Shown here one piece after another: positions 7,174-17,642 of a stretch of DNA of 64,000 bases; position 1 is the first letter of the stretch; each line of letters begins with the position of its first letter. Location of the stretch: contig CALAOR010000057.1 in assembly GCA_937889595.1 (NCBI GenBank), positions 7,500-71,499 on the forward strand, in the 5' to 3' direction. Source of the DNA: an uncultured bacterium (lineage in GTDB: Bacteria; Oederibacteriota; PGYV01; Palsa-1178). Made by a program: the position numbers and the translations under genes. The notes beneath the pieces are model-generated. The model was not told the DNA's origin. It made no database searches and worked only from the letters and a program-made list of their open reading frames with translations.

Positions 7174-7932
7174 TTACCAGTCTGTTTTTACAGGTTTTTC
7201 TTCCTTTTCATCATTGCCAAACGCGAGCATCAGGCCCGCGCCTATATAAAAACCCGAATAATCGACATTCTGGGGCGTTACTTCATTCCCGTACAGCGGC
7301 CCCCAGTTTATATCTATGCTTCCCTTTGCATACCTGTAGCCGCCCCGGAATGAAACGCCAAACTTGTCATTCAGCCACATGTCCATACCGGCCTCAAAAT
7401 TAAAGCCGTACAGGGCCGTGTTCCATGTTTTTTCAATTGTAAGCATATCTGACCCGTCGGGATAATATATAATGTCTTTTTCCCTGTTCCCCGAATTCAG
7501 GTAAAAGCAGGCGTCTGCCCCAACATAAAATGCGGCAATATACTTTCTTACCCCGAAACCGCCGTAATACACGCTGTAGTCGGACGTCATCTTTTCAAAA
7601 ACTGTTGCAGGATCGTAAAAGAGTTTTGATTCATTCCCCGCGTTAAGCCTTCCCCCGCGGAAATAAACCCCCCATGTTCCCGAATTTAAGCTCTCAAGGT
7701 TATAAACATAGCTGAATTCCGAAAGTACCGCGGTATCCATCCTGTTAAACTGCGATGATATCCCGTAGTAATTATATATATCGCGGCTTTGCTGGATCAA
7801 GGTATTGTAATCGGACATGGTTATCTGGTCATAAGCGATAAAAATTTCCATGTAACTTTTATTATTTGAGGCGCCCGCCCGGATTAACCCGGCTAAAAAA
7901 ACAAAAGTGATTATAATCGCATATTTTTTCAT
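7174..7932 (-). CDS. Outer-membrane beta-barrel protein (OmpW/Opa-like porin family)
   Basis: Signal peptide, alternating amphipathic beta-strand pattern, aromatic-rich sequence with a C-terminal aromatic residue. Confidence 0.6.
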   Translation of the reverse strand: MKKYAIIITFVFLAGLIRAGASNNKSYMEIFIAYDQITMSDYNTLIQQSRDIYNYYGISSQFNRMDTAVLSEFSYVYNLESLNSGTWGVYFRGGRLNAGNESKLFYDPATVFEKMTSDYSVYYGGFGVRKYIAAFYVGADACFYLNSGNREKDIIYYPDGSDMLTIEKTWNTALYGFNFEAGMDMWLNDKFGVSFRGGYRYAKGSIDINWGPLYGNEVTPQNVDYSGFYIGAGLMLAFGNDEKEEKPVKTDW

Positions 7933-7968: not shown

Positions 7969-10089
7969 CTATATAACTTCCGTGAAGTTTACCTCTATAT
8001 CCGAACCTTCGTATATCTGCGTGGTGTACCCGGCTTTTTCTCCGTTTACTTTCAGCTCCAGCATCCTGCCCTTGGCGCGTTCCATGTTTACGGGGTAGAA
8101 CTTGAATATGGAGGAGAGTATCATTTTCTCTTCCGTCAGTTTCTGCTCCAGTACCGCGCCGTTTATTATGAACTCGTCTTCCGGGACCTTCCTGCCGTTC
8201 ATGTATATATCGCTTTTTTCCTGCTCGAGCTCAAATGGCTTGCCGTTAATCATGACTTTTATTTTTTTTGCGGCCGTGTTCTTCAGGAGGTCTTTTATCC
8301 TGTAAAAAGCCGGGGAATCCACATACACAACCTTGTCCATGTTCCGCAGCGTATAACCGGGGGACACTTCAGCGCCGTTGACTTTCAGCTGGAAATTCCG
8401 CTGTTTTAGTATCACGGGCTCCTTGTTTACCGTCACTATGATATCGCGTTCATTGGACGCGCCCATCTCAAATCCCGCGCGCGCAAGCGCTTCTTTTATA
8501 TTATCCACCCTTTTTACCTCGATCTCAGCCCTGTCGCGGAGCGCCTCTTCCATGCTTACTTCCCTGCCGCCGCATAATACTACGGGCGCTATGTCGTGTT
8601 TTCTTCCGTTTATTTCCACGGTTGTGACGTAGCTTTCATGCACTATGTCTTTTATCAGGGCGTACGCGTTGTCACCGTCCTTTACCGGGCTGATAACCAG
8701 CACATCCCCGTGTTTTATTTCCGAATCAAGGTCTTTTTCCGCGTTGTTGACATAGACTTTAGAGTGCTCGGCACGGCTGCCGCGCAGTATTTTCAGCTCT
8801 CCGTTAAAAGTAAAGGTAATGGCCTGGCCGGGCCTGCCGTAAAGTTTTTTCAGTTCCATGCCCCTTGACATAATGACATCCATCACGGTTATTTTTTGCT
8901 CGAGGTTTATTATGTATTCCTTTTCCCCGTTAACCGTCACTTCCACAAAACCTATGCCTTTTTTAAAAAGCGCCGTTTCCAGGATACCAAGCGGGGTTAT
9001 TCCCTCTGTGCCTTTAAGCGAATCAGGCAGGTTTTCTATGTTTGTTATGGATTCAGGCGTCCTGCTTCCGACCCTGTTGATGGGCAATCCCAGATTCTCC
9101 GCCACTTTTTCGCGAAGTGCAAGCAGGGAGCTTCCGCCGCCCACCATTACCACGGCCTGCGGCTGTTTTCCGTTTAAGTTCAGGATCTCATCCGCTATGT
9201 CCTTTGCAACTTCCTCAGCTTTTGGCTCTGCCGCGGCTTTGAATCCGTCATAAGTGACCGTCACTGGTTGGTTGAAAATGTCCCTTGCTTCAAACACGCG
9301 CTCCGCGCTTGTTTCCCTTTTTATCCTCTCAGCCGTATTAAAGTCAACAAGGTACTCATGGCATATGGCCTCTGTTATCTCGTCGCCGGCTTTTGGTATC
9401 ATTCCGTAAGCGGTTATCTTATTTTTTTCGGTGATGGCTATGTCCGAAGTTCCGGCCCCCACATCCACAAGTGCGAGGTTCAAAAGCCTCATATCGTCGG
9501 GTATGGTGACATAAAGGGCCGCAATCGGCTCGAGCGTTATATACTCAAGGGTTAAGGAACAGTTTTTTAATACCGCTATCATGGAGTCAAGCACTGGTTT
9601 TGGCAGGAATGTGACTAAAGTTGAAACACCGACCGTATGTTTGGCGATTTGCTGCACCGGGTTTTTAATGTGCTCGCCGTCAACGCTGAAAGCAACCGGG
9701 GAATATCCCACGCAGTAATAATCCTTTTTCTTGTCCAGGGCAAGCTGTGACAAGCCCCGCCTTACGCTTTCAAGTTCCAGGTACGCAAGGTCTTCTTTTG
9801 TTATCTCTCCTTTTTTCTCCATTTCAGCTTCTGTTTTTTCCGTGTGCAGGCTTCTGCCCGCGAGCGCGGTGGTAACTTTTTCTATTATAATATTGTTCTT
9901 TTCTTCAAGTTTTCTTTTTATTTTATTTACTATTGTGGTGACGTCTTCTATATTATGTATCTGCCCGTCAAGCATGGCACGCTTATCATGCTCTAATACC
10001 ACGGCATCTATGATGTGCACCTTGTCCCCGCGCATCTCGCCGAGTATCCCGGCGACCTTGCGTGTTCCGATGTCTAAAGCAAATATCAT
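7969..10089 (-). CDS. FtsA/PilM-family actin-like ATPase (about 400 aa) fused to about 300 aa of six tandem small 'VNG(E/K)...GD' beta-grasp-like (ThiS/MoaD-like?) modules
   Basis: N-terminus LDIGTRKVAGILGE; phosphate-2 and adenosine motifs (LVDVGAGTSDIAI, VVMVGGGSSLLALRE) resemble FtsA. The C-terminus contains repeated TVNGEKEY.., TFNGELKI..GDVLVISPV, EINGRKHD.., KVNGAEVS.., MINGKPFE.., KVNGEKAG.. units. Confidence 0.7.
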   Translation of the reverse strand: MIFALDIGTRKVAGILGEMRGDKVHIIDAVVLEHDKRAMLDGQIHNIEDVTTIVNKIKRKLEEKNNIIIEKVTTALAGRSLHTEKTEAEMEKKGEITKEDLAYLELESVRRGLSQLALDKKKDYYCVGYSPVAFSVDGEHIKNPVQQIAKHTVGVSTLVTFLPKPVLDSMIAVLKNCSLTLEYITLEPIAALYVTIPDDMRLLNLALVDVGAGTSDIAITEKNKITAYGMIPKAGDEITEAICHEYLVDFNTAERIKRETSAERVFEARDIFNQPVTVTYDGFKAAAEPKAEEVAKDIADEILNLNGKQPQAVVMVGGGSSLLALREKVAENLGLPINRVGSRTPESITNIENLPDSLKGTEGITPLGILETALFKKGIGFVEVTVNGEKEYIINLEQKITVMDVIMSRGMELKKLYGRPGQAITFTFNGELKILRGSRAEHSKVYVNNAEKDLDSEIKHGDVLVISPVKDGDNAYALIKDIVHESYVTTVEINGRKHDIAPVVLCGGREVSMEEALRDRAEIEVKRVDNIKEALARAGFEMGASNERDIIVTVNKEPVILKQRNFQLKVNGAEVSPGYTLRNMDKVVYVDSPAFYRIKDLLKNTAAKKIKVMINGKPFELEQEKSDIYMNGRKVPEDEFIINGAVLEQKLTEEKMILSSIFKFYPVNMERAKGRMLELKVNGEKAGYTTQIYEGSDIEVNFTEVI

Positions 10090-10210
10090 ATTTTTTCCTC
10101 CGTAAAATCTATTTTAAGGCTTATCATGGAACTGAGGAAGCCCGTCGCCATAAAACTAAATCGGCTCCTCGCAATGACGACTAAACCCGGGTCTACAATT
10201 TAATGCGCCT

Positions 10211-10834
10211 TTAACTCACCCTTATCGCCGTCAGCAGCACTTTCACCGAAGGCTCGTCCGGTATCAGCAGCAGATACCCTTTTATGGCTTTTTCATTTGC
10301 CTCGGAAAATTGGGTTTCTATCGACAATATATGCGATGACATTCCGTCAAATCCGTCCGCTAATGACGAAAAAATGGCGCTTGCTATGTCAAACACCAGG
10401 TTCGGAACGGACGGCAGCAGCATGAGCCCCAAAAACTCGTTCAGCGAATTCATGTATGCGCCTGCCAGTATGTTTCCTGTTTCTTTTATCGCCGAGTTGC
10501 CGACTTCGGACAGCACTTTTGTCGACCCGGCGGGTTTTTGCAGCAGCAAATCAACCAGATTTAAGGCTGACTCCCTTGTCAAAAGCAGGAGTATTTTTGA
10601 AGTTATATCGCCCAGGACATTCATGATAACCCCTGCTACCAGCGTATTTGGGTCCCCCAAAAGCGAATCAATCTCCTGTGTCTTGATCACTTTTACTTCA
10701 GGCACGGATATCATAATTTTTTTCTTAATAAGCTGTGACAGGGCCGTGGCAGCGTGCCCGGCGCCTATGTTCCCGACTTCCTTTAAAGCATCTATCTGGG
10801 CGTCTGATAATGTCTGTAAACTGTTGTCCGACAC
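10211..10834 (-). CDS. cheC: CheC-family CheY-P phosphatase (copy 1)
   Basis: Two CheC consensus motifs (EVGNIGAGHAATALSQL and EVGNSAIKETGNILAGAYMNSL...P). Confidence 0.85.
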   Translation of the reverse strand: MSDNSLQTLSDAQIDALKEVGNIGAGHAATALSQLIKKKIMISVPEVKVIKTQEIDSLLGDPNTLVAGVIMNVLGDITSKILLLLTRESALNLVDLLLQKPAGSTKVLSEVGNSAIKETGNILAGAYMNSLNEFLGLMLLPSVPNLVFDIASAIFSSLADGFDGMSSHILSIETQFSEANEKAIKGYLLLIPDEPSVKVLLTAIRVS

Positions 10835-10940: not shown

Positions 10941-12974
10941 TTAAACCATTTTGAGGTTGCTCTCAATAAGCGCCTGTATGTCCACGATCAGGCTGATCGA
11001 ACCGTCACCGAGTATGGTAACTCCCGAAAAACCTTTGGCAAACTTTAAAAATTCCCCCAGGCTTTTTATGGCTATTTCCTGCTGTCCCAATACTGAATCA
11101 ACAGTCAAGGCTATTTTTTTATCCCTTGCTTCTATTATCACCATATTTACTATTTCACTTTCCTTCTGCCTTCCTTTTCCTATCAGTTCGGAAAGCGAAA
11201 GCACGGGCACAACTTCGCCGCGCAGTATTATGACCCGCCTTGCCTGTATGTCCTTTATGTCTTTTGAAGGGAATTCAACGGTTTCTATGGTATGTATGAC
11301 CGGTATCGCATATGTGGCGCCGGCGGCCTTGACTAACAGGGCCTGTATTATGGCAAGCGTAAGGGGGAGCTTGAGTATTGATTTCATGCCCTCTCCCTGA
11401 TAATTTTCCATCCTGAATATCCCGCCGAATGCCTCTACTTTTGTCTTCACAACGTCGACTCCGACCCCCCTGCCCGACACATTATCCACTTTCTCGGCCG
11501 TTGAAAATCCGGGGATTGAAATTAAATTTACAAGTTCATCATCGGTTAAGGTGTCCAGTTTGTCAAGCGGCATGAGTTTTTTTTCAATTGCCTTTTTCCT
11601 GACTTTCTCCAGATTGATGCCGCGCCCGTCATCGGAAACTTCAATGATTACGGAGTTGCGGTCGCGCCGGGCGGAGAGCCTTATCACTCCTTTTTTTGTT
11701 TTGCCCGCGTTCTCACGCTGTTCGGGTGTTTCCAGGCCGTGTGCTATGCAGTTGCGGACCAGGTGGAGAATGGGTTCGTTTATTTCCTCTAATACCGTCC
11801 TGTCTATCTCTATGTCGCCTCCTGTTATCTCCACTTCAACCAGTTTTCCGGCCTGGCTGCTCAAATCGCGCACTATGCGCGGATAACGGTCAAATATATG
11901 GGAAACGGGGAGCATCCTGACGTCGGTTACCTCTATCTGCAGTTCGTCTATGATCCTGTCAAACTCATCCACGGTCGACGCTAAATCCCTGTAAGTCTTG
12001 TTCCTTGCTATCTGGTCAAGCCTTATCTTGGCTATAACAAGCTCGCCCACCAGGTTCATCATGGAATCAAGCTTTTCTATATTCACACGGACGCTTTGCG
12101 AGATTGCAGATGGTTTTTTTTCATTCTCAGCCGCAATTATTTCCTTATCACCGTTTTCAGCGTGCTTAAGATTTTCCTTTATTTCCTTTTTTTGAGCGCG
12201 TACTTCTTCTATGTCCGCCTTTTCAATTTCAGCTATCCTGGATATTGACTGTTCTATTTCCTGCGCAGGCGCTTTTGATACAAAACCCAGCTCAAAAGAA
12301 TTGTCAAAATTTCCTTCCTCTATGTCTTTTGCCTTAGGTGAAGATTTTACTATCTCTCCTTTTTCAGACAAATTGCGCGAGACCATGAAAGCCCTGACGC
12401 TTTTAAAAGCGCATGTCCTGGCTATGGTGACTTTTATCCTGTAGACTTTCATCCCTTGCGCGGCCGCTTCATTTAATATGAGGTCCTCTATGATAATGCC
12501 TGTTTCCGTTTTTAACGGGTCCGTTTCTCCGCTTAAAGACGCGGCAGGTACGGCCTGACGCGGTTGGGCGGCGGTTTTTATTTCCCGGGCAGGCGCCGAG
12601 CTTTTTGCCTTAATCTGGATTATTATATCCTTATAGCCTTTCGCAAAATCAACGTTTTGGTTCCTTATATTGTCGATAAACTCCTGCATTACATCTATGG
12701 ACCTAAAAAGCAGGTTTACTATGTCAATATCGGGCGCGAGCGTTCCGCCCCTGATCCTGTCCATAACGTCTTCGAGCATGTGGGTAAACTCAGCCAACTT
12801 ATCGTAGCCCATGGTTGCCGACATGCCTTTTAAGGTATGGGCCGCCCTGAAAAGTTCGTTTAAGGGCGTTAAGTCCTCAATGTTCTTTTCAAAATTAAGG
12901 AGAGCCTTGTTTAAGTTGTTTATGTTTTCCACAGCTTCCTCTAAAAACGCCTCTTTGTAGCTCTCAGTGTTCAT
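10941..12974 (-). CDS. cheA: Chemotaxis histidine kinase CheA
   Basis: Hpt (HTLKGMSATMG), dimerisation, HATPase_c and C-terminal CheW-like domains. Confidence 0.95.
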   Translation of the reverse strand: MNTESYKEAFLEEAVENINNLNKALLNFEKNIEDLTPLNELFRAAHTLKGMSATMGYDKLAEFTHMLEDVMDRIRGGTLAPDIDIVNLLFRSIDVMQEFIDNIRNQNVDFAKGYKDIIIQIKAKSSAPAREIKTAAQPRQAVPAASLSGETDPLKTETGIIIEDLILNEAAAQGMKVYRIKVTIARTCAFKSVRAFMVSRNLSEKGEIVKSSPKAKDIEEGNFDNSFELGFVSKAPAQEIEQSISRIAEIEKADIEEVRAQKKEIKENLKHAENGDKEIIAAENEKKPSAISQSVRVNIEKLDSMMNLVGELVIAKIRLDQIARNKTYRDLASTVDEFDRIIDELQIEVTDVRMLPVSHIFDRYPRIVRDLSSQAGKLVEVEITGGDIEIDRTVLEEINEPILHLVRNCIAHGLETPEQRENAGKTKKGVIRLSARRDRNSVIIEVSDDGRGINLEKVRKKAIEKKLMPLDKLDTLTDDELVNLISIPGFSTAEKVDNVSGRGVGVDVVKTKVEAFGGIFRMENYQGEGMKSILKLPLTLAIIQALLVKAAGATYAIPVIHTIETVEFPSKDIKDIQARRVIILRGEVVPVLSLSELIGKGRQKESEIVNMVIIEARDKKIALTVDSVLGQQEIAIKSLGEFLKFAKGFSGVTILGDGSISLIVDIQALIESNLKMV

Positions 12975-14035
12975 TTTGCTTCCCTTGTCATTATATTTAT
13001 TTCTTCGGTTATAAAATCCGCTATCTCATTTATGGGAAGGACCTTATCCGCGTAACCCTTATCAACTACGGATTTCGGCATTCCGTAAATCACGGAAGTG
13101 TCCTTGTCCTGGACTATTATCCTTGCTTTTTTTTCCTTTATTTTTTCCACCCCTGCTGTCCCGTCCCTGCCCATACCGGTCAGGATAACTCCTATAAGAC
13201 TTCCTTCAAAAACTTTTGCGGCGGAAAATAATGTCATGTCAGCGCATGGCCTGACCCCGAGCCTGGTCGGTTCCTGGTTCAATTCCACCCTGTATTCCGC
13301 GCCGGATTTTAATATTTCCATATGGTAATTGCCGGGTGCCACATAAGCCGTACCGGCTTTGATTATCTCGCCGTGCACAGCCTCCTTGACATGTATGAGA
13401 GATAATGAGTTAAGCCTGTCGGCAAGCGATTTAGTGAACCCTTCCGACATGTGCTGTATAATAAGGTATGAAGCCGGCAGATTGCGGGGTATTTTCGGCA
13501 CTACTTCGGTTAAGGCCCGTGGCCCTCCCGTTGATGTTGCTATTATTACCATAATCTCATTTTTTTGCTGTATTTCTTTTTCAGGATGTTTTACTTCCAC
13601 GTCTTCGGGCAGTGTAAAGGTTACCTTGTTCAAATCTATACTTTTTGCGGCCTTTATTTTTTCAACAAGCTCCTTCTGTATCTTTTTTATGTCCAGCGAT
13701 ATTTCGCCTGAAGGCTTGCATACAAAATCCACCGCCCCATACTGAAGTGCCTTAATTGTGATATCCGCGCCTTTGGGCGTGTAGGCTGACAACATGATCA
13801 CCGGGGTCGGTTTTTCGCTCATTATGTAGCCTAAGGTATGCAGCCCGTCCATTTCCGGCATTTCAACGTCAAGAGTGATTACATCCGGGGACAATTCCAT
13901 AGTTTTCTTAAATGCGTCCCTGCCGTCTTTGGCGGTCGCTATAACCTCTATATCCGGATCCTCGTTTAACATGTCCGGAATTATCTTGCGCATGAAAGCT
14001 GAGTCATCGACGACCAAGACCCGTATTTTAGCCAT
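12971..14035 (-). CDS. cheB: Chemotaxis methylesterase CheB (REC + CheB_methylest)
   Basis: N-terminal receiver domain (VLVVDDSAFMR) and a methylesterase domain with the catalytic Ser-His-Asp region. 4-bp overlap with cheA. Confidence 0.95.
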   Translation of the reverse strand: MAKIRVLVVDDSAFMRKIIPDMLNEDPDIEVIATAKDGRDAFKKTMELSPDVITLDVEMPEMDGLHTLGYIMSEKPTPVIMLSAYTPKGADITIKALQYGAVDFVCKPSGEISLDIKKIQKELVEKIKAAKSIDLNKVTFTLPEDVEVKHPEKEIQQKNEIMVIIATSTGGPRALTEVVPKIPRNLPASYLIIQHMSEGFTKSLADRLNSLSLIHVKEAVHGEIIKAGTAYVAPGNYHMEILKSGAEYRVELNQEPTRLGVRPCADMTLFSAAKVFEGSLIGVILTGMGRDGTAGVEKIKEKKARIIVQDKDTSVIYGMPKSVVDKGYADKVLPINEIADFITEEINIMTREAK

Positions 14036-14038
14036 ATA

Positions 14039-14401
14039 TTACTCCTGGAGCGTTCTGTCTACAGCTTCCAACACTCTTGTAGGTTGGAAAGGCTTTATGA
14101 CAAAATCCTTTGCTCCTGCCTGTATTGCTTCTATCACGAGCGCCTGCTGCCCCATGGCGCTGCACATCAGTATCTTAGCATTTGGGTCAAACTTCATTAT
14201 TTCCTTTACTGCCTGTATTCCGTCTATTTCCGGCATTATTATATCCATGGTCACAATATCCGGCCTTAACTCCTTGTATTTTTCTATGGCATCCCTGCCG
14301 TTTACGGCCTCGCCCGCTATCTCAAGGTCCTTTTTCTTTAATATGCCGGCCAGGATGTTCCTCATGAATTTTGTATCATCAACTATTAGGACTTTCTTCA
14401 A
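14039..14401 (-). CDS. cheY: CheY-like response regulator (copy 1). Probable TTG start at 14401 preceded by AAGGAGG; the longest ORF extends to 14425.
   Basis: Receiver domain with the DD...D...K signature. RBS AAGGAGG lies 5 nt upstream of the internal TTG. Confidence 0.85.
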   Translation of the reverse strand: MKKVLIVDDTKFMRNILAGILKKKDLEIAGEAVNGRDAIEKYKELRPDIVTMDIIMPEIDGIQAVKEIMKFDPNAKILMCSAMGQQALVIEAIQAGAKDFVIKPFQPTRVLEAVDRTLQE

Positions 14402-14870
14402 ATTTTCCTCCTTCAGATAGCGCAATAATTTTAAGTTTGTCCTGTTCGTCCTCGGTAAATATTTTTTCTATGTCAAGCAGGACTATTATTTTATCTTCTA
14501 TTTTTACTATCGACTGTATATACCGCCCACCCGCGCCGGTTACAGTTGCCGGAGCCGCAAGCATATCGCTTTCTTTTGCGTTTATGACTTTCGTTACCTC
14601 GTCAACCACCACTCCCACAAGCTGGTGCTTGGCATATTCCACTATGACGATACGGAACATTATGGTCGCTTCCTTGCTTTCCATGCCAAAACGCCTGCGG
14701 AGGTCTATAATCGGGATTATTTTACCCCTCAAATTAATGACCCCTTCTATAAAATCCGGGGCCGTAGGAACCTCGGTTATCTCCTTAAGGCGTATTATTT
14801 CAACGACTTTCATGATCTCAAAAGCGTAGTCGTCCTCCCTTATTTTGAATCCTACTATTTTGCGTTCCAT
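14379..14870 (-). CDS. cheW: Chemotaxis coupling protein CheW
   Basis: Single CheW-like domain (EIIRLKEITEVPTAPDFIEGVINLRGKIIPIIDLRRRFG). Confidence 0.9.
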   Translation of the reverse strand: MERKIVGFKIREDDYAFEIMKVVEIIRLKEITEVPTAPDFIEGVINLRGKIIPIIDLRRRFGMESKEATIMFRIVIVEYAKHQLVGVVVDEVTKVINAKESDMLAAPATVTGAGGRYIQSIVKIEDKIIVLLDIEKIFTEDEQDKLKIIALSEGGKFEESPNS

Positions 14871-14873
14871 GGC

Positions 14874-16148
14874 TTAGGCCTTCTTTTCCAAATGGAATTT
14901 TGTCATGAGTCCCCTTAACACTTCGGCTGTCTGGGCCAATTCCTGCGCCTGCGCCGCTATTTCTTCCATGGAAGCTGTCTGCTCCTGGGTTGAAGCCGAG
15001 GCCTCCTGTGTTCCCGCAGCAGTTTCCTCGGCAACGGCCGCGATTTCCTCAACCGCTTTTACGACCTTGTCGGTATCCTGGGCCTGTGCCTTTGTAAGCA
15101 ATGTTATTTCGCCGGAAAGTTTTAGGACTTTTGCCACCACTTCATCTATCCTTTTCAGCACTTCGCCGCTTTCCGTCACCACTTTTTTTCCTTCTTCCGT
15201 TTCCTTTACGCCGATCATGATGGCCTTTACCACGCCGTCTGTTTTATCATGTATATCCTCAACAAGCCGTGTTATTTCCCTGGCGGAACTGGCCGAGCCT
15301 TCGGCAAGTTTCCTTACCTCGTCCGCGACAACCGCGAAACCGCGTCCTGCCTCGCCTGCGCGCGCCGCTTCTATAGCCGCATTTAAGGCCAGCAGGTTTG
15401 TCTCGTCGGCTATCTCGGTTATTGTGTTAACGACTTCCTCTATTTTTTCCGAATAAATTTTAAGCTCCTCCACGGAATCTTTTGCCTTGTTCGTCACATT
15501 GACTATGTCTTCCATCTTTATTATGGTTTCCCTTACCGCGTTCATGCCGTTTTCCGTTGCTTCTTTTGCGGATTTTGCCACACCAAGGACTTCCTCTGAT
15601 TTTTGGGCGACTTCCTGTATGGAATTTGACATGTTTTCCATGATACGGGATGTCTCCACGGTGCGCTCCGCCTGCTGCTCCACCCCGCGGGCTATCTGCT
15701 GCACTGTCGACGATATCTCCTCAGCCGAGGAGTTTATCTGCTGGGTGGAAGCGGATAAATTTTCAGCCAGGTTCATAATATTATCCGAAGAATCCCTGAA
15801 TTTTGAGAGCATGTTCTTAAGGCCGTCTATCATATTGTTCACGCTCTTGGTTATGTTCTTTAAAAACCCGGATTGTATTTTTGAGCCGTCGTTTATTTCT
15901 CCTAAAGCAAGCAAATCAAACTTAACGGCAAGCTTGTCAAACTTGTCCGCGCCTATTTTCAGGGCTGCGGCTGAATTCACGGCCATGAGCACGATGCATA
16001 AGCCCAGTATAAGCAGGAAGAAATTCAGGCTTTTTATCTCAATTCCGCCAAAAAAACATATAAGGAAAAATATAAGTCCCGCGCATAACGACACGCCGGC
16101 GTCGATCAATATGATCTTTGCCGTCAAGTCAAGATCTTTTTTTTCCAT
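14874..16148 (-). CDS. Methyl-accepting chemotaxis protein (2 TM, minimal periplasmic loop)
   Basis: MCP signalling domain with highly conserved hairpin tip ([39 protein letters not shown]). Confidence 0.9.
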
Positions 16149-16163
16149 AACTTTAACCGCCCG

Positions 16164-16646
16164 TCATATGGTTTTTGTCCCGGCTGAATAACTTTTCACA
16201 ATAGCCGTCTTTGTCATGACCGAAAACTCTATGGTCCTGCCGTAATTACCGCCCGTGTCTTCGCCAATTAACGCGATGCCCTTGGAAGCCAGGCATTCTT
16301 TGGCTTTTTTAATATTTCTCTCCCCTATCGTCTCCATTTCATTTTTAACATCGAACATTTTCGCGCCGCCGAACATTTTGGCCTGCATGTCCTTTAAGTT
16401 GACGCCTTCTTTTATCATAGCCTTGACCATGTTTTCTATCCCCGCGTCCAGATACTTATTTTCAATGCCTTCTTTCCTGTTGTGCGGCCTCTCCGGCAGT
16501 ATACCGTGAAGCATCGCCGCGACCGGACGCAGCCTGTCATAACAGACAACGATAATACATGACCCTACCCCGAAAGCAGCCAGCAGATCCAAATTTTTCC
16601 CGGTTTTCAATTCGCCCATATTGACCTTTATCGAATCGGACGCCAT
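16164..16646 (-). CDS. cheD: Chemoreceptor glutamine deamidase CheD
   Basis: CheD family with the conserved Cys region (GVGSCIIVVCYD). Confidence 0.85.
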   Translation of the reverse strand: MASDSIKVNMGELKTGKNLDLLAAFGVGSCIIVVCYDRLRPVAAMLHGILPERPHNRKEGIENKYLDAGIENMVKAMIKEGVNLKDMQAKMFGGAKMFDVKNEMETIGERNIKKAKECLASKGIALIGEDTGGNYGRTIEFSVMTKTAIVKSYSAGTKTI

Positions 16647-16650
16647 TAAT

Positions 16651-17274
16651 TTAAGAGCCTTTTACGGTATTATTCAGTGCTTCCAGTATTTTTGCCATAG
16701 CATTTTTATCAGGTATAAGAAACAGCTTGCTTTTCAAATTTGTTATTTCCTCGGTCATTTCATTTTCAATCAGCATAGCCTCAGGCCCCATTTCAGCCAG
16801 TTCGGCCGAGATTGTTTCAAATATGGCGTCGACCATGTCCACTGCCAGAGCCGGGACGGAAGGCACCGAATTCAGGCCGATAAATTTTGCTATCGCATTA
16901 AGGTAGGCGGATACGATTATGTTCCCTATTTCTTTCAGGGCCGACTGCTCTGTCTCCCCGAATTCCTTTGTCTGCCCGAGCTTTCTCCTCATGAGCAGGT
17001 CCAAAAGCAGGAAAACTTTGTCCTGCGGGAATATTAAAAGCGCCCGCGCCTGTATTTCCCCGAATATGCGCATATAAACAGCAGCCACTATTTTTGCCTC
17101 ACGTGAGACCATTTCAGCCATTTTTTCGACCGGAACCATTACAATTGACGGCACATCTATGCTTATATCCCTGCCGAGCAGCTGGGACAGGGCCGTGGCC
17201 GCGCTTCCCGCGCCTATGTTCCCGAGTTCCTTTAAAGCATCCCGCTGAAAGTCACTGAGCTTATTATCGGCCAT
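16651..17274 (-). CDS. cheC: CheC-family CheY-P phosphatase (copy 2)
   Basis: Two CheC motifs (ELGNIGAGSAATALSQL; EIGNIIVSAYLNAI...P). Adjacent to cheD as in the B. subtilis cheC-cheD pair. Confidence 0.85.
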   Translation of the reverse strand: MADNKLSDFQRDALKELGNIGAGSAATALSQLLGRDISIDVPSIVMVPVEKMAEMVSREAKIVAAVYMRIFGEIQARALLIFPQDKVFLLLDLLMRRKLGQTKEFGETEQSALKEIGNIIVSAYLNAIAKFIGLNSVPSVPALAVDMVDAIFETISAELAEMGPEAMLIENEMTEEITNLKSKLFLIPDKNAMAKILEALNNTVKGS

Positions 17275-17276
17275 AG

Positions 17277-17642
17277 TCAGTTTCCTATAATTTTGCTTAC
17301 AGTTTCAAGCACGTTGGATTGTTCAAACGGCTTTACTATATAATCTTTCGCGCCTGCCTGTATGGCTTCTATAACCAGCGCCTGCTGCCCTATGGCGCTG
17401 CATATAAGTATGTTTGCGTTCGGAAATTCAGCGATTATGTTTTTAAGCACATCGATACCGCCCATTTCAGGCATGACCATGTCGGATATCAGCATATCCG
17501 GCTTCAACTCCTTGTACTTTTGTATGGCCTCGCGCCCGTTTGCGGCCTCTCCAACAACTTCATATCCGCCGCCCACAAGTATGTTCCTTAGCATCATGCG
17601 CATAAAAGACGCGTCGTCAGCTATTAATATTCTTTTTGCCAT
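17277..17642 (-). CDS. cheY: CheY-like response regulator (copy 2)
   Basis: Single receiver domain; paralogue of the 14039..14401 gene. Confidence 0.85.
   Translation of the reverse strand: MAKRILIADDASFMRMMLRNILVGGGYEVVGEAANGREAIQKYKELKPDMLISDMVMPEMGGIDVLKNIIAEFPNANILICSAIGQQALVIEAIQAGAKDYIVKPFEQSNVLETVSKIIGN

Follow-up and report, generated by a model that had tools for sequence, protein, structure and literature searches.

FtsAL, a 706-residue protein encoded next to chemotaxis genes, joins an FtsA-like actin-fold ATPase head to a tail that is predicted to consist of five diverged ThiS/TGS-like beta-grasp repeat sets, which occupy about 330 residues in place of a membrane helix. Its gene lies in the window, a stretch of 64,000 nucleotides from a contig of an uncultured bacterium (Table 1). 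We tentatively regard FtsAL as a soluble cytoplasmic ATPase of the FtsA/PilM branch, an FtsA paralogue distinct from the division protein, that serves as a chemosensory accessory protein in one che-linked clade.

The original prediction described a single gene without giving its strand, and the reading frame on the minus strand is indeed uninterrupted. A search with the tail profile against 1.84 billion representative proteins returned 336 proteins at an E value of ≤1e-30, and the same architecture is found in hundreds of clusters from several phyla. A frameshift, a split gene, or a fusion artefact is rejected because the reading frame is continuous and the approximately 700-residue architecture recurs across phyla. 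Full-length homologs share 35 to 88% identity, and their tail begins at about residue 375 to 400 of about 700 to 735. In these sequences, the tail is found only fused to an FtsA-like head, the two appearing to form an obligate pair. The hosts are Bacillota, Thermotogae, Synergistetes, Omnitrophota, PVC bacteria, Goldbacteria, and one methanogen. A second apparent family member at locus L003 was set aside as a true PilM-PilN fusion, which scores 130 bits on the Pfam family PilM_2.

Members of the family are currently mislabelled as “cell division protein FtsA” or “rod shape-determining protein”, and neither Pfam nor NCBIfam holds a model for the beta-grasp tail. The suggestion that the architecture and its che location are undescribed agrees with our literature search, in which neither open-access papers and preprints nor the 2007 beta-grasp survey yielded anything on the family.

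Table 1. Positions in the window of the FtsAL gene, its domains and motifs, and the neighbouring genes
Feature	Position	Strand	FtsAL residues	Remarks
FtsAL ORF	7969..10089	minus	1-706	Complete, 706 aa + stop; FtsA-like head and beta-grasp repeat tail
Shine-Dalgarno GGAGG	10097..10101	minus		7 nt 5' of the ATG start, read from the sequence
Actin-fold ATPase of FtsA type	8965..10089	minus	1-375	Subdomains 1A, 1C, 2A, 2B
Phosphate-1 motif LDIGTRKVAGILGE	10036..10077	minus	5-18	D6, G8, T9, R10 invariant in 58 homologs
1C-like (SHS2-type) inserted subdomain	9601..9840	minus	about 84-163	Approximate boundaries from secondary structure
Phosphate-2 motif LVDVGAGTSDIAI	9433..9471	minus	207-219	D209, G211, A212, G213, T214, D216 invariant in 58 homologs
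Adenosine motif VVMVGGGSSLLAL	9115..9153	minus	313-325	G317, G318, G319 invariant in 58 homologs
Array of five beta-grasp repeat sets	7978..8955	minus	379-704	ThiS/MoaD/TGS-like
Repeat set 1	8680..8955	minus	379-470	Hairpin VEVTVNGEKEYIINL, helix, inserted hairpin TFTFNGELKIL, then KVYVNN...GDVLVIS; predicted secondary structure
Repeat set 2	8506..8670	minus	474-528	Helix, hairpin VEINGRKHDIA, then VVLCGGREV...DRAEIEVK; boundaries from periodicity, not coordinates
Repeat set 3	8314..8505	minus	529-592	Helix DNIKEALARAG, hairpin IIVTVNKEPVILK, then FQLKVNGAEV...MDKVVYV
Repeat set 4	8131..8313	minus	593-653	Helix YRIKDLL, hairpin KIKVMINGKPFELE, then DIYMNGRKV...NGAVLEQK
Repeat set 5	7978..8130	minus	654-704	Helices, then LELKVNGEKAGYTT...GSDIEVNF; beta-strand C-terminus, no Gly-Gly, no amphipathic helix
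Signal-peptide ORF	7174..7932	same as FtsAL		36 nt 3' of FtsAL; unrelated, non-conserved
cheC-like phosphatase gene	10211..10834	minus		Directly 5' of FtsAL; Pfam CheC 5.2e-23
cheA	10941..12974	minus		che operon
cheB	12971..14035	minus		che operon
cheY	14039..14425	minus		che operon
cheW	14379..14870	minus		che operon
MCP	14874..16148	minus		che operon
cheD	16164..16646	minus		che operon
cheC (second)	16651..17274	minus		che operon
cheY (second)	17277..17642	minus		che operon

An FtsA-type actin head

The AlphaFold model of FtsAL has a mean pLDDT of 85.2. The best Foldseek matches of its head in the PDB are FtsA chains (PDB IDs 7q6i, 7q6f, 7q6d, 3wt0, and 1e4g; E values of 1e-29 to 1e-23), which superpose with TM-scores (target) of 0.80 to 0.84 over 390 to 400 columns, corresponding to the whole FtsA chain of 370 to 388 residues. 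At the profile level, the TIGR01174 ftsA model aligns continuously over residues 2 to 351 (E value of 1.7e-33), whereas its 116.3 bits fall below the equivalog cut-off of 175.85 bits, as do the 69.9 bits on PRK09472 (cut-off of 409 bits).

The FtsA-type phosphate and adenosine motifs named in the original prediction are present, starting at residues 5, 207, and 313, and its FtsA fold with a 1C subdomain is upheld by the structure prediction and the Foldseek matches to the actin fold. Strand, helix, and strand elements are predicted at residues 82 to 163, a region inside the whole-FtsA superposition; the Pfam SHS2_FTSA model gave no match to FtsAL. By its sequence and model, the head retains every nucleotide-binding motif together with the FtsA-specific 1C subdomain, and it would be expected to bind ATP. 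The two proteins of this bacterial actin branch that have been well studied, FtsA and PilM, both tether partner peptides at the membrane. Like them, FtsAL probably self-associates, grips the short peptide tails of its partners, or does both, the clamping by PilM being a plausible mechanistic model by analogy.

The relation to PilM raises the alternative that FtsAL, like PilM, is a cytoplasmic part of the type IV pilus machinery or else regulates it, in which case the che operon would belong to a pilus-controlling chemosensory system. Pfam FtsA and PilM_2 both exceed their gathering scores on the head (38.5 bits for PilM_2, with a gathering score of 27), and PilM structures rank second among the fold matches. 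At two loci (L086 and L087), the che operon is closely preceded by prepilin-type N_methyl genes, and a gene for ComFB, a protein tied to competence and pilus regulation, follows FtsAL in the Omnitrophota operons. However, FtsA fits better by profile (116 bits on TIGR01174 versus 36.1 bits on TIGR01175, the PilM model, whose cut-off of 133 bits is not reached) and by fold (TM-scores of 0.64 to 0.78 for PilM), and the genuine PilM-PilN fusion scores far higher on PilM_2. Neither pilN nor pilO is adjacent to FtsAL at any locus, no pilP or pilQ was found beside it in the window or related loci, and no pilus genes adjoin it in the window or the Goldbacteria-like loci. We therefore consider a pilus role improbable.

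A tail of beta-grasp repeats

The tail is predicted to contain 5 helices and 25 strands with a period of about 55 to 65 residues, which can be tallied as five hairpins, five helices, and five three-strand units. Self-BLAST of the single tail sequence detected no repeats, which are therefore too diverged for a pairwise search, whereas hhalign self-matches of the profile reached E values of 2e-25 and 1e-20, far beyond chance. The original prediction of six tandem repeats holds for the tandem arrangement but not for the number: five sets are present, and the earlier count was of N-G hairpins, which number about ten. Likewise, the unit limits do not follow the proposed scheme running from “VNG” to “GD”. 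The confidence of the model is evenly high along the array, which shows no obvious flexible linkers.

Of the two folds suggested for the repeats, ThiS/MoaD-like beta-grasp and S4, the former is supported by likeness to solved structures, and the latter is rejected, with neither an alpha-L fold nor a match to the S4 RNA-binding profiles (Pfam IDs PF01479 and PF13275) found on FtsAL. Repeat set 1 is best read as a canonical-order beta-grasp with an insertion of about 20 residues (89 columns for the 69 residues of ThiS, PDB ID 3cwi), and the best stretch for Pfam ThiS is at residues 518 to 566, overlapping repeat set 3. The PDB sequence-profile search with the tail gave marginal matches only, among them MoaD (PDB ID 1vjk; E value of 0.28), covering repeat set 4, so that the assignment called for a comparison of folds. 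A nucleotide-, tRNA-, or RNA-binding regulator, with TGS/S4-like repeats that contact RNA or ribosomes and an actin-fold head that serves as the ATP switch, is in our view very improbable.

The best Foldseek matches of the tail are bacterial multi-ubiquitin domain proteins (PDB IDs 9cd2, 9d5a, and 8u38), with about 115 alignment columns per ubiquitin domain, and canonical-order beta-grasp matches occur about every 110 residues rather than every 60. Three parses of the tail were weighed, namely, a simple tandem of 5 units of about 62 residues, compact helix-first units, and interleaved modules. The interleaved modules are favoured on just two grounds, the Foldseek column counts and the tally of hairpins, helices, and three-strand units in the predicted structure. 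The tail may be a new interdigitated beta-grasp chain, where the helix-to-strand loop of one module bears the first hairpin of the next. The beta-grasp rod probably works as a rigid arm that binds proteins or as a spacer.

The same Foldseek matches could point to a ubiquitin-like conjugation protein or an anti-phage “multi-ubiquitin” (Bub-type) protein, a reading that we regard as effectively refuted. The protein has no C-terminal Gly-Gly, ending in ...IEVNFTEVI, and no genes for E1, E2, or deubiquitinase-like enzymes were found in the neighbourhoods examined. There is no defence-system profile match; PADLOC gave only a 20-bit match, to the actin phosphate-2 motif. The TM-scores of 0.15 to 0.33 indicate that the structural match reflects the tandem beta-grasp folds only.

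Che operon linkage and proposed function

In the window, FtsAL follows cheA and cheC on the same strand, as originally described, but it is not strictly the last gene of the che operon, since the signal-peptide ORF lies close behind it. This ORF was rejected as a partner of FtsAL; it has no Pfam assignment, and the ORF downstream of a 70%-identical FtsAL homolog shows no homology to it. The operon of that homolog is syntenic, with Pfam labels in the same order as in the window. No terminator or promoter is predicted in the 121-nt gap between cheC and FtsAL in the window.

Adjacency of cheC and FtsAL is kept at L001, L005, L007, L012, L013, L021, L083, L085, L086, L088, L089, and L090. FtsAL lies within a che operon at 8 of the 80 genome loci (one of which, L004, ends at a contig edge and shows only cheR, cheD, and cheB) and in all seven bacterial homologs looked up outside the Bacillota, the one from Synergistetes being left aside. 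It is terminal in the che operons of Goldbacteria, where the gap to cheC measures 121 to 168 nt, and of PVC bacteria. In Omnitrophota, it is internal, in the order cheA-cheC-FtsAL-comFB-cheR, with cheY, cheD, cheB, cheC, and cheW also downstream and a stop/start overlap on the cheC side; the overlap with cheC is 4 nt at L005, L007, L086, and L090. In the archaeon Methanolobus, FtsAL sits between cheC and cheR with gaps of 1 to 2 nt. The che linkage has therefore outlasted both operon rearrangement and a transfer from bacterium to archaeon (L012 and L013).

The gene neighbourhood supports a link to chemotaxis in one clade only, comprising Goldbacteria-like, Omnitrophota, PVC, and Methanolobus members. 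There, the FtsAL gene forms an integral part of the che operon; it comes immediately after cheA-cheC, and translational coupling to cheC is frequent. Its product may be a chemosensory accessory protein, an ATP-dependent scaffold or adaptor by which the CheA/CheC signalling complex is organised, positioned, or linked to its cellular target. This chemotaxis role and every mechanistic step in it are proposed from the gene neighbourhood. A more specific and rather unlikely version is that FtsAL is an unrecognised actin-family chemosensory component, an ATP-driven filament or scaffold whose interleaved beta-grasp rod docks CheA/CheC/CheY-type proteins and which positions or segregates the arrays or serves as a pathway output.

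Alternatively, FtsAL could be an FtsA paralogue with a general part in the cytoskeleton, division, or polarity and functionally unconnected to chemotaxis, the cheA-cheC neighbourhood being inherited within one clade; we consider this possible, though on the unlikely side. In the neighbour-joining distance tree, the che-linked members group together as one clade, so the linkage may have arisen once and may partly be inherited synteny. A block of che ... FtsAL-dprA-topA-xerC recurs at L001, L083, L085, L088, and L089, which we take to resemble an ancient smf-topA-...-codV-...-fla/che synteny of Bacillus, and the wide cheC-FtsAL gap in Goldbacteria points the same way. Most of the family, in Bacillota, Thermotogae, and Synergistetes, has no che linkage. 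At about 70 loci of Bacillota and Thermotogae, FtsAL is found in contexts unrelated to che, so any function common to the whole family must be independent of a nearby che gene. It accompanies aroA or ytxJ-ytxH-ytxG-murC in Bacillaceae, lies upstream of ctsR-mcsAB-clpC in Syntrophomonas, follows mutS2 in Synergistetes and Fervidobacterium, and precedes a gene for a membrane GGDEF protein in Clostridia. The operon-internal position in Omnitrophota with its codon overlap and downstream che genes, and the very short gaps in Methanolobus, argue against this alternative, and unless co-expression was selected for, it is difficult to see why the linkage was kept through rearrangement and inter-domain transfer.

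BLAST clusters labelled “CheB” and “CheY” near the Clostridia members were read as ordinary two-component regulators from their lengths (218 to 283 and about 228 residues, respectively) and context only, and they were not counted as che genes. The CheC proteins adjoining FtsAL do not separate cleanly as one subfamily in the tree, and a dedicated grouping is only partly seen.

For the accessory role, the fixed place in the che operon of one clade offers a testable lead, with Methanolobus as a cultured archaeal host. Should the che link amount to no more than synteny, the family would still represent a sizeable annotation blind spot.

Comparison with known systems

FtsA (TIGR01174; Pfam IDs PF14450 and PF02491) shares with FtsAL the actin fold with 1C in place of 1B and the intact nucleotide motifs, and it gives the best fold and profile match. 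FtsAL differs by scoring below the equivalog cut-off and by its 330-residue beta-grasp tail. It also lacks the C-terminal amphipathic membrane-targeting helix of FtsA, ending instead in the beta-strand of the last beta-grasp set, and the maximum helical hydrophobic moment over its last 45 residues is only 0.36. In the window, it adjoins cheA and cheC and not dcw/ftsQ-ftsZ; no dcw-type ftsQ or ftsZ neighbour was recognised among the conserved or Pfam-labelled neighbours at any locus examined, most other ORFs of the 80 genome loci being unannotated. To our knowledge, FtsAL-bearing Bacillota also carry a normal ftsA. PilM (Pfam ID PF11104; TIGR01175) is likewise a soluble cytoplasmic ATP-binding protein of the FtsA/PilM branch, but its profile match to FtsAL is weak (38 bits, versus 130 bits for the real PilM at L003), and it has no beta-grasp tail. 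The FtsAL family is a third large group among these actins, with the beta-grasp rod as a different C-terminal solution.

Compared with ThiS/MoaD/SAMP and TGS proteins, FtsAL has five fused copies in one chain and an unusual element order (hairpin, helix, hairpin, three-strand unit, helix, and so on). It lacks the free C-terminal Gly-Gly, its internal repeats have no free C-terminus at all, and the repeats therefore cannot be sulfur carriers or modifiers. Bacterial multi-ubiquitin proteins also hold several tandem beta-grasp domains in one polypeptide, but they have no actin-fold head, whereas FtsAL has no nearby conjugation machinery or defence signature and matches them with a very low global TM-score.

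Array-positioning ATPases encoded in che operons are known from the ParA/MinD family, namely, ParC/ParP of Vibrio and PpfA of Rhodobacter. The proposed role of FtsAL parallels the logic of these ParA-type systems, as both are cytoskeleton-type nucleotide-dependent ATPases encoded in a che operon, the functional analogy being hypothetical. The folds are different, with a deviant Walker A P-loop in ParA/MinD proteins and the actin fold in FtsAL. On the more specific and rather unlikely version above, FtsAL would represent an actin-fold equivalent of the ParC/PpfA systems, having moved with its operon into an archaeon.

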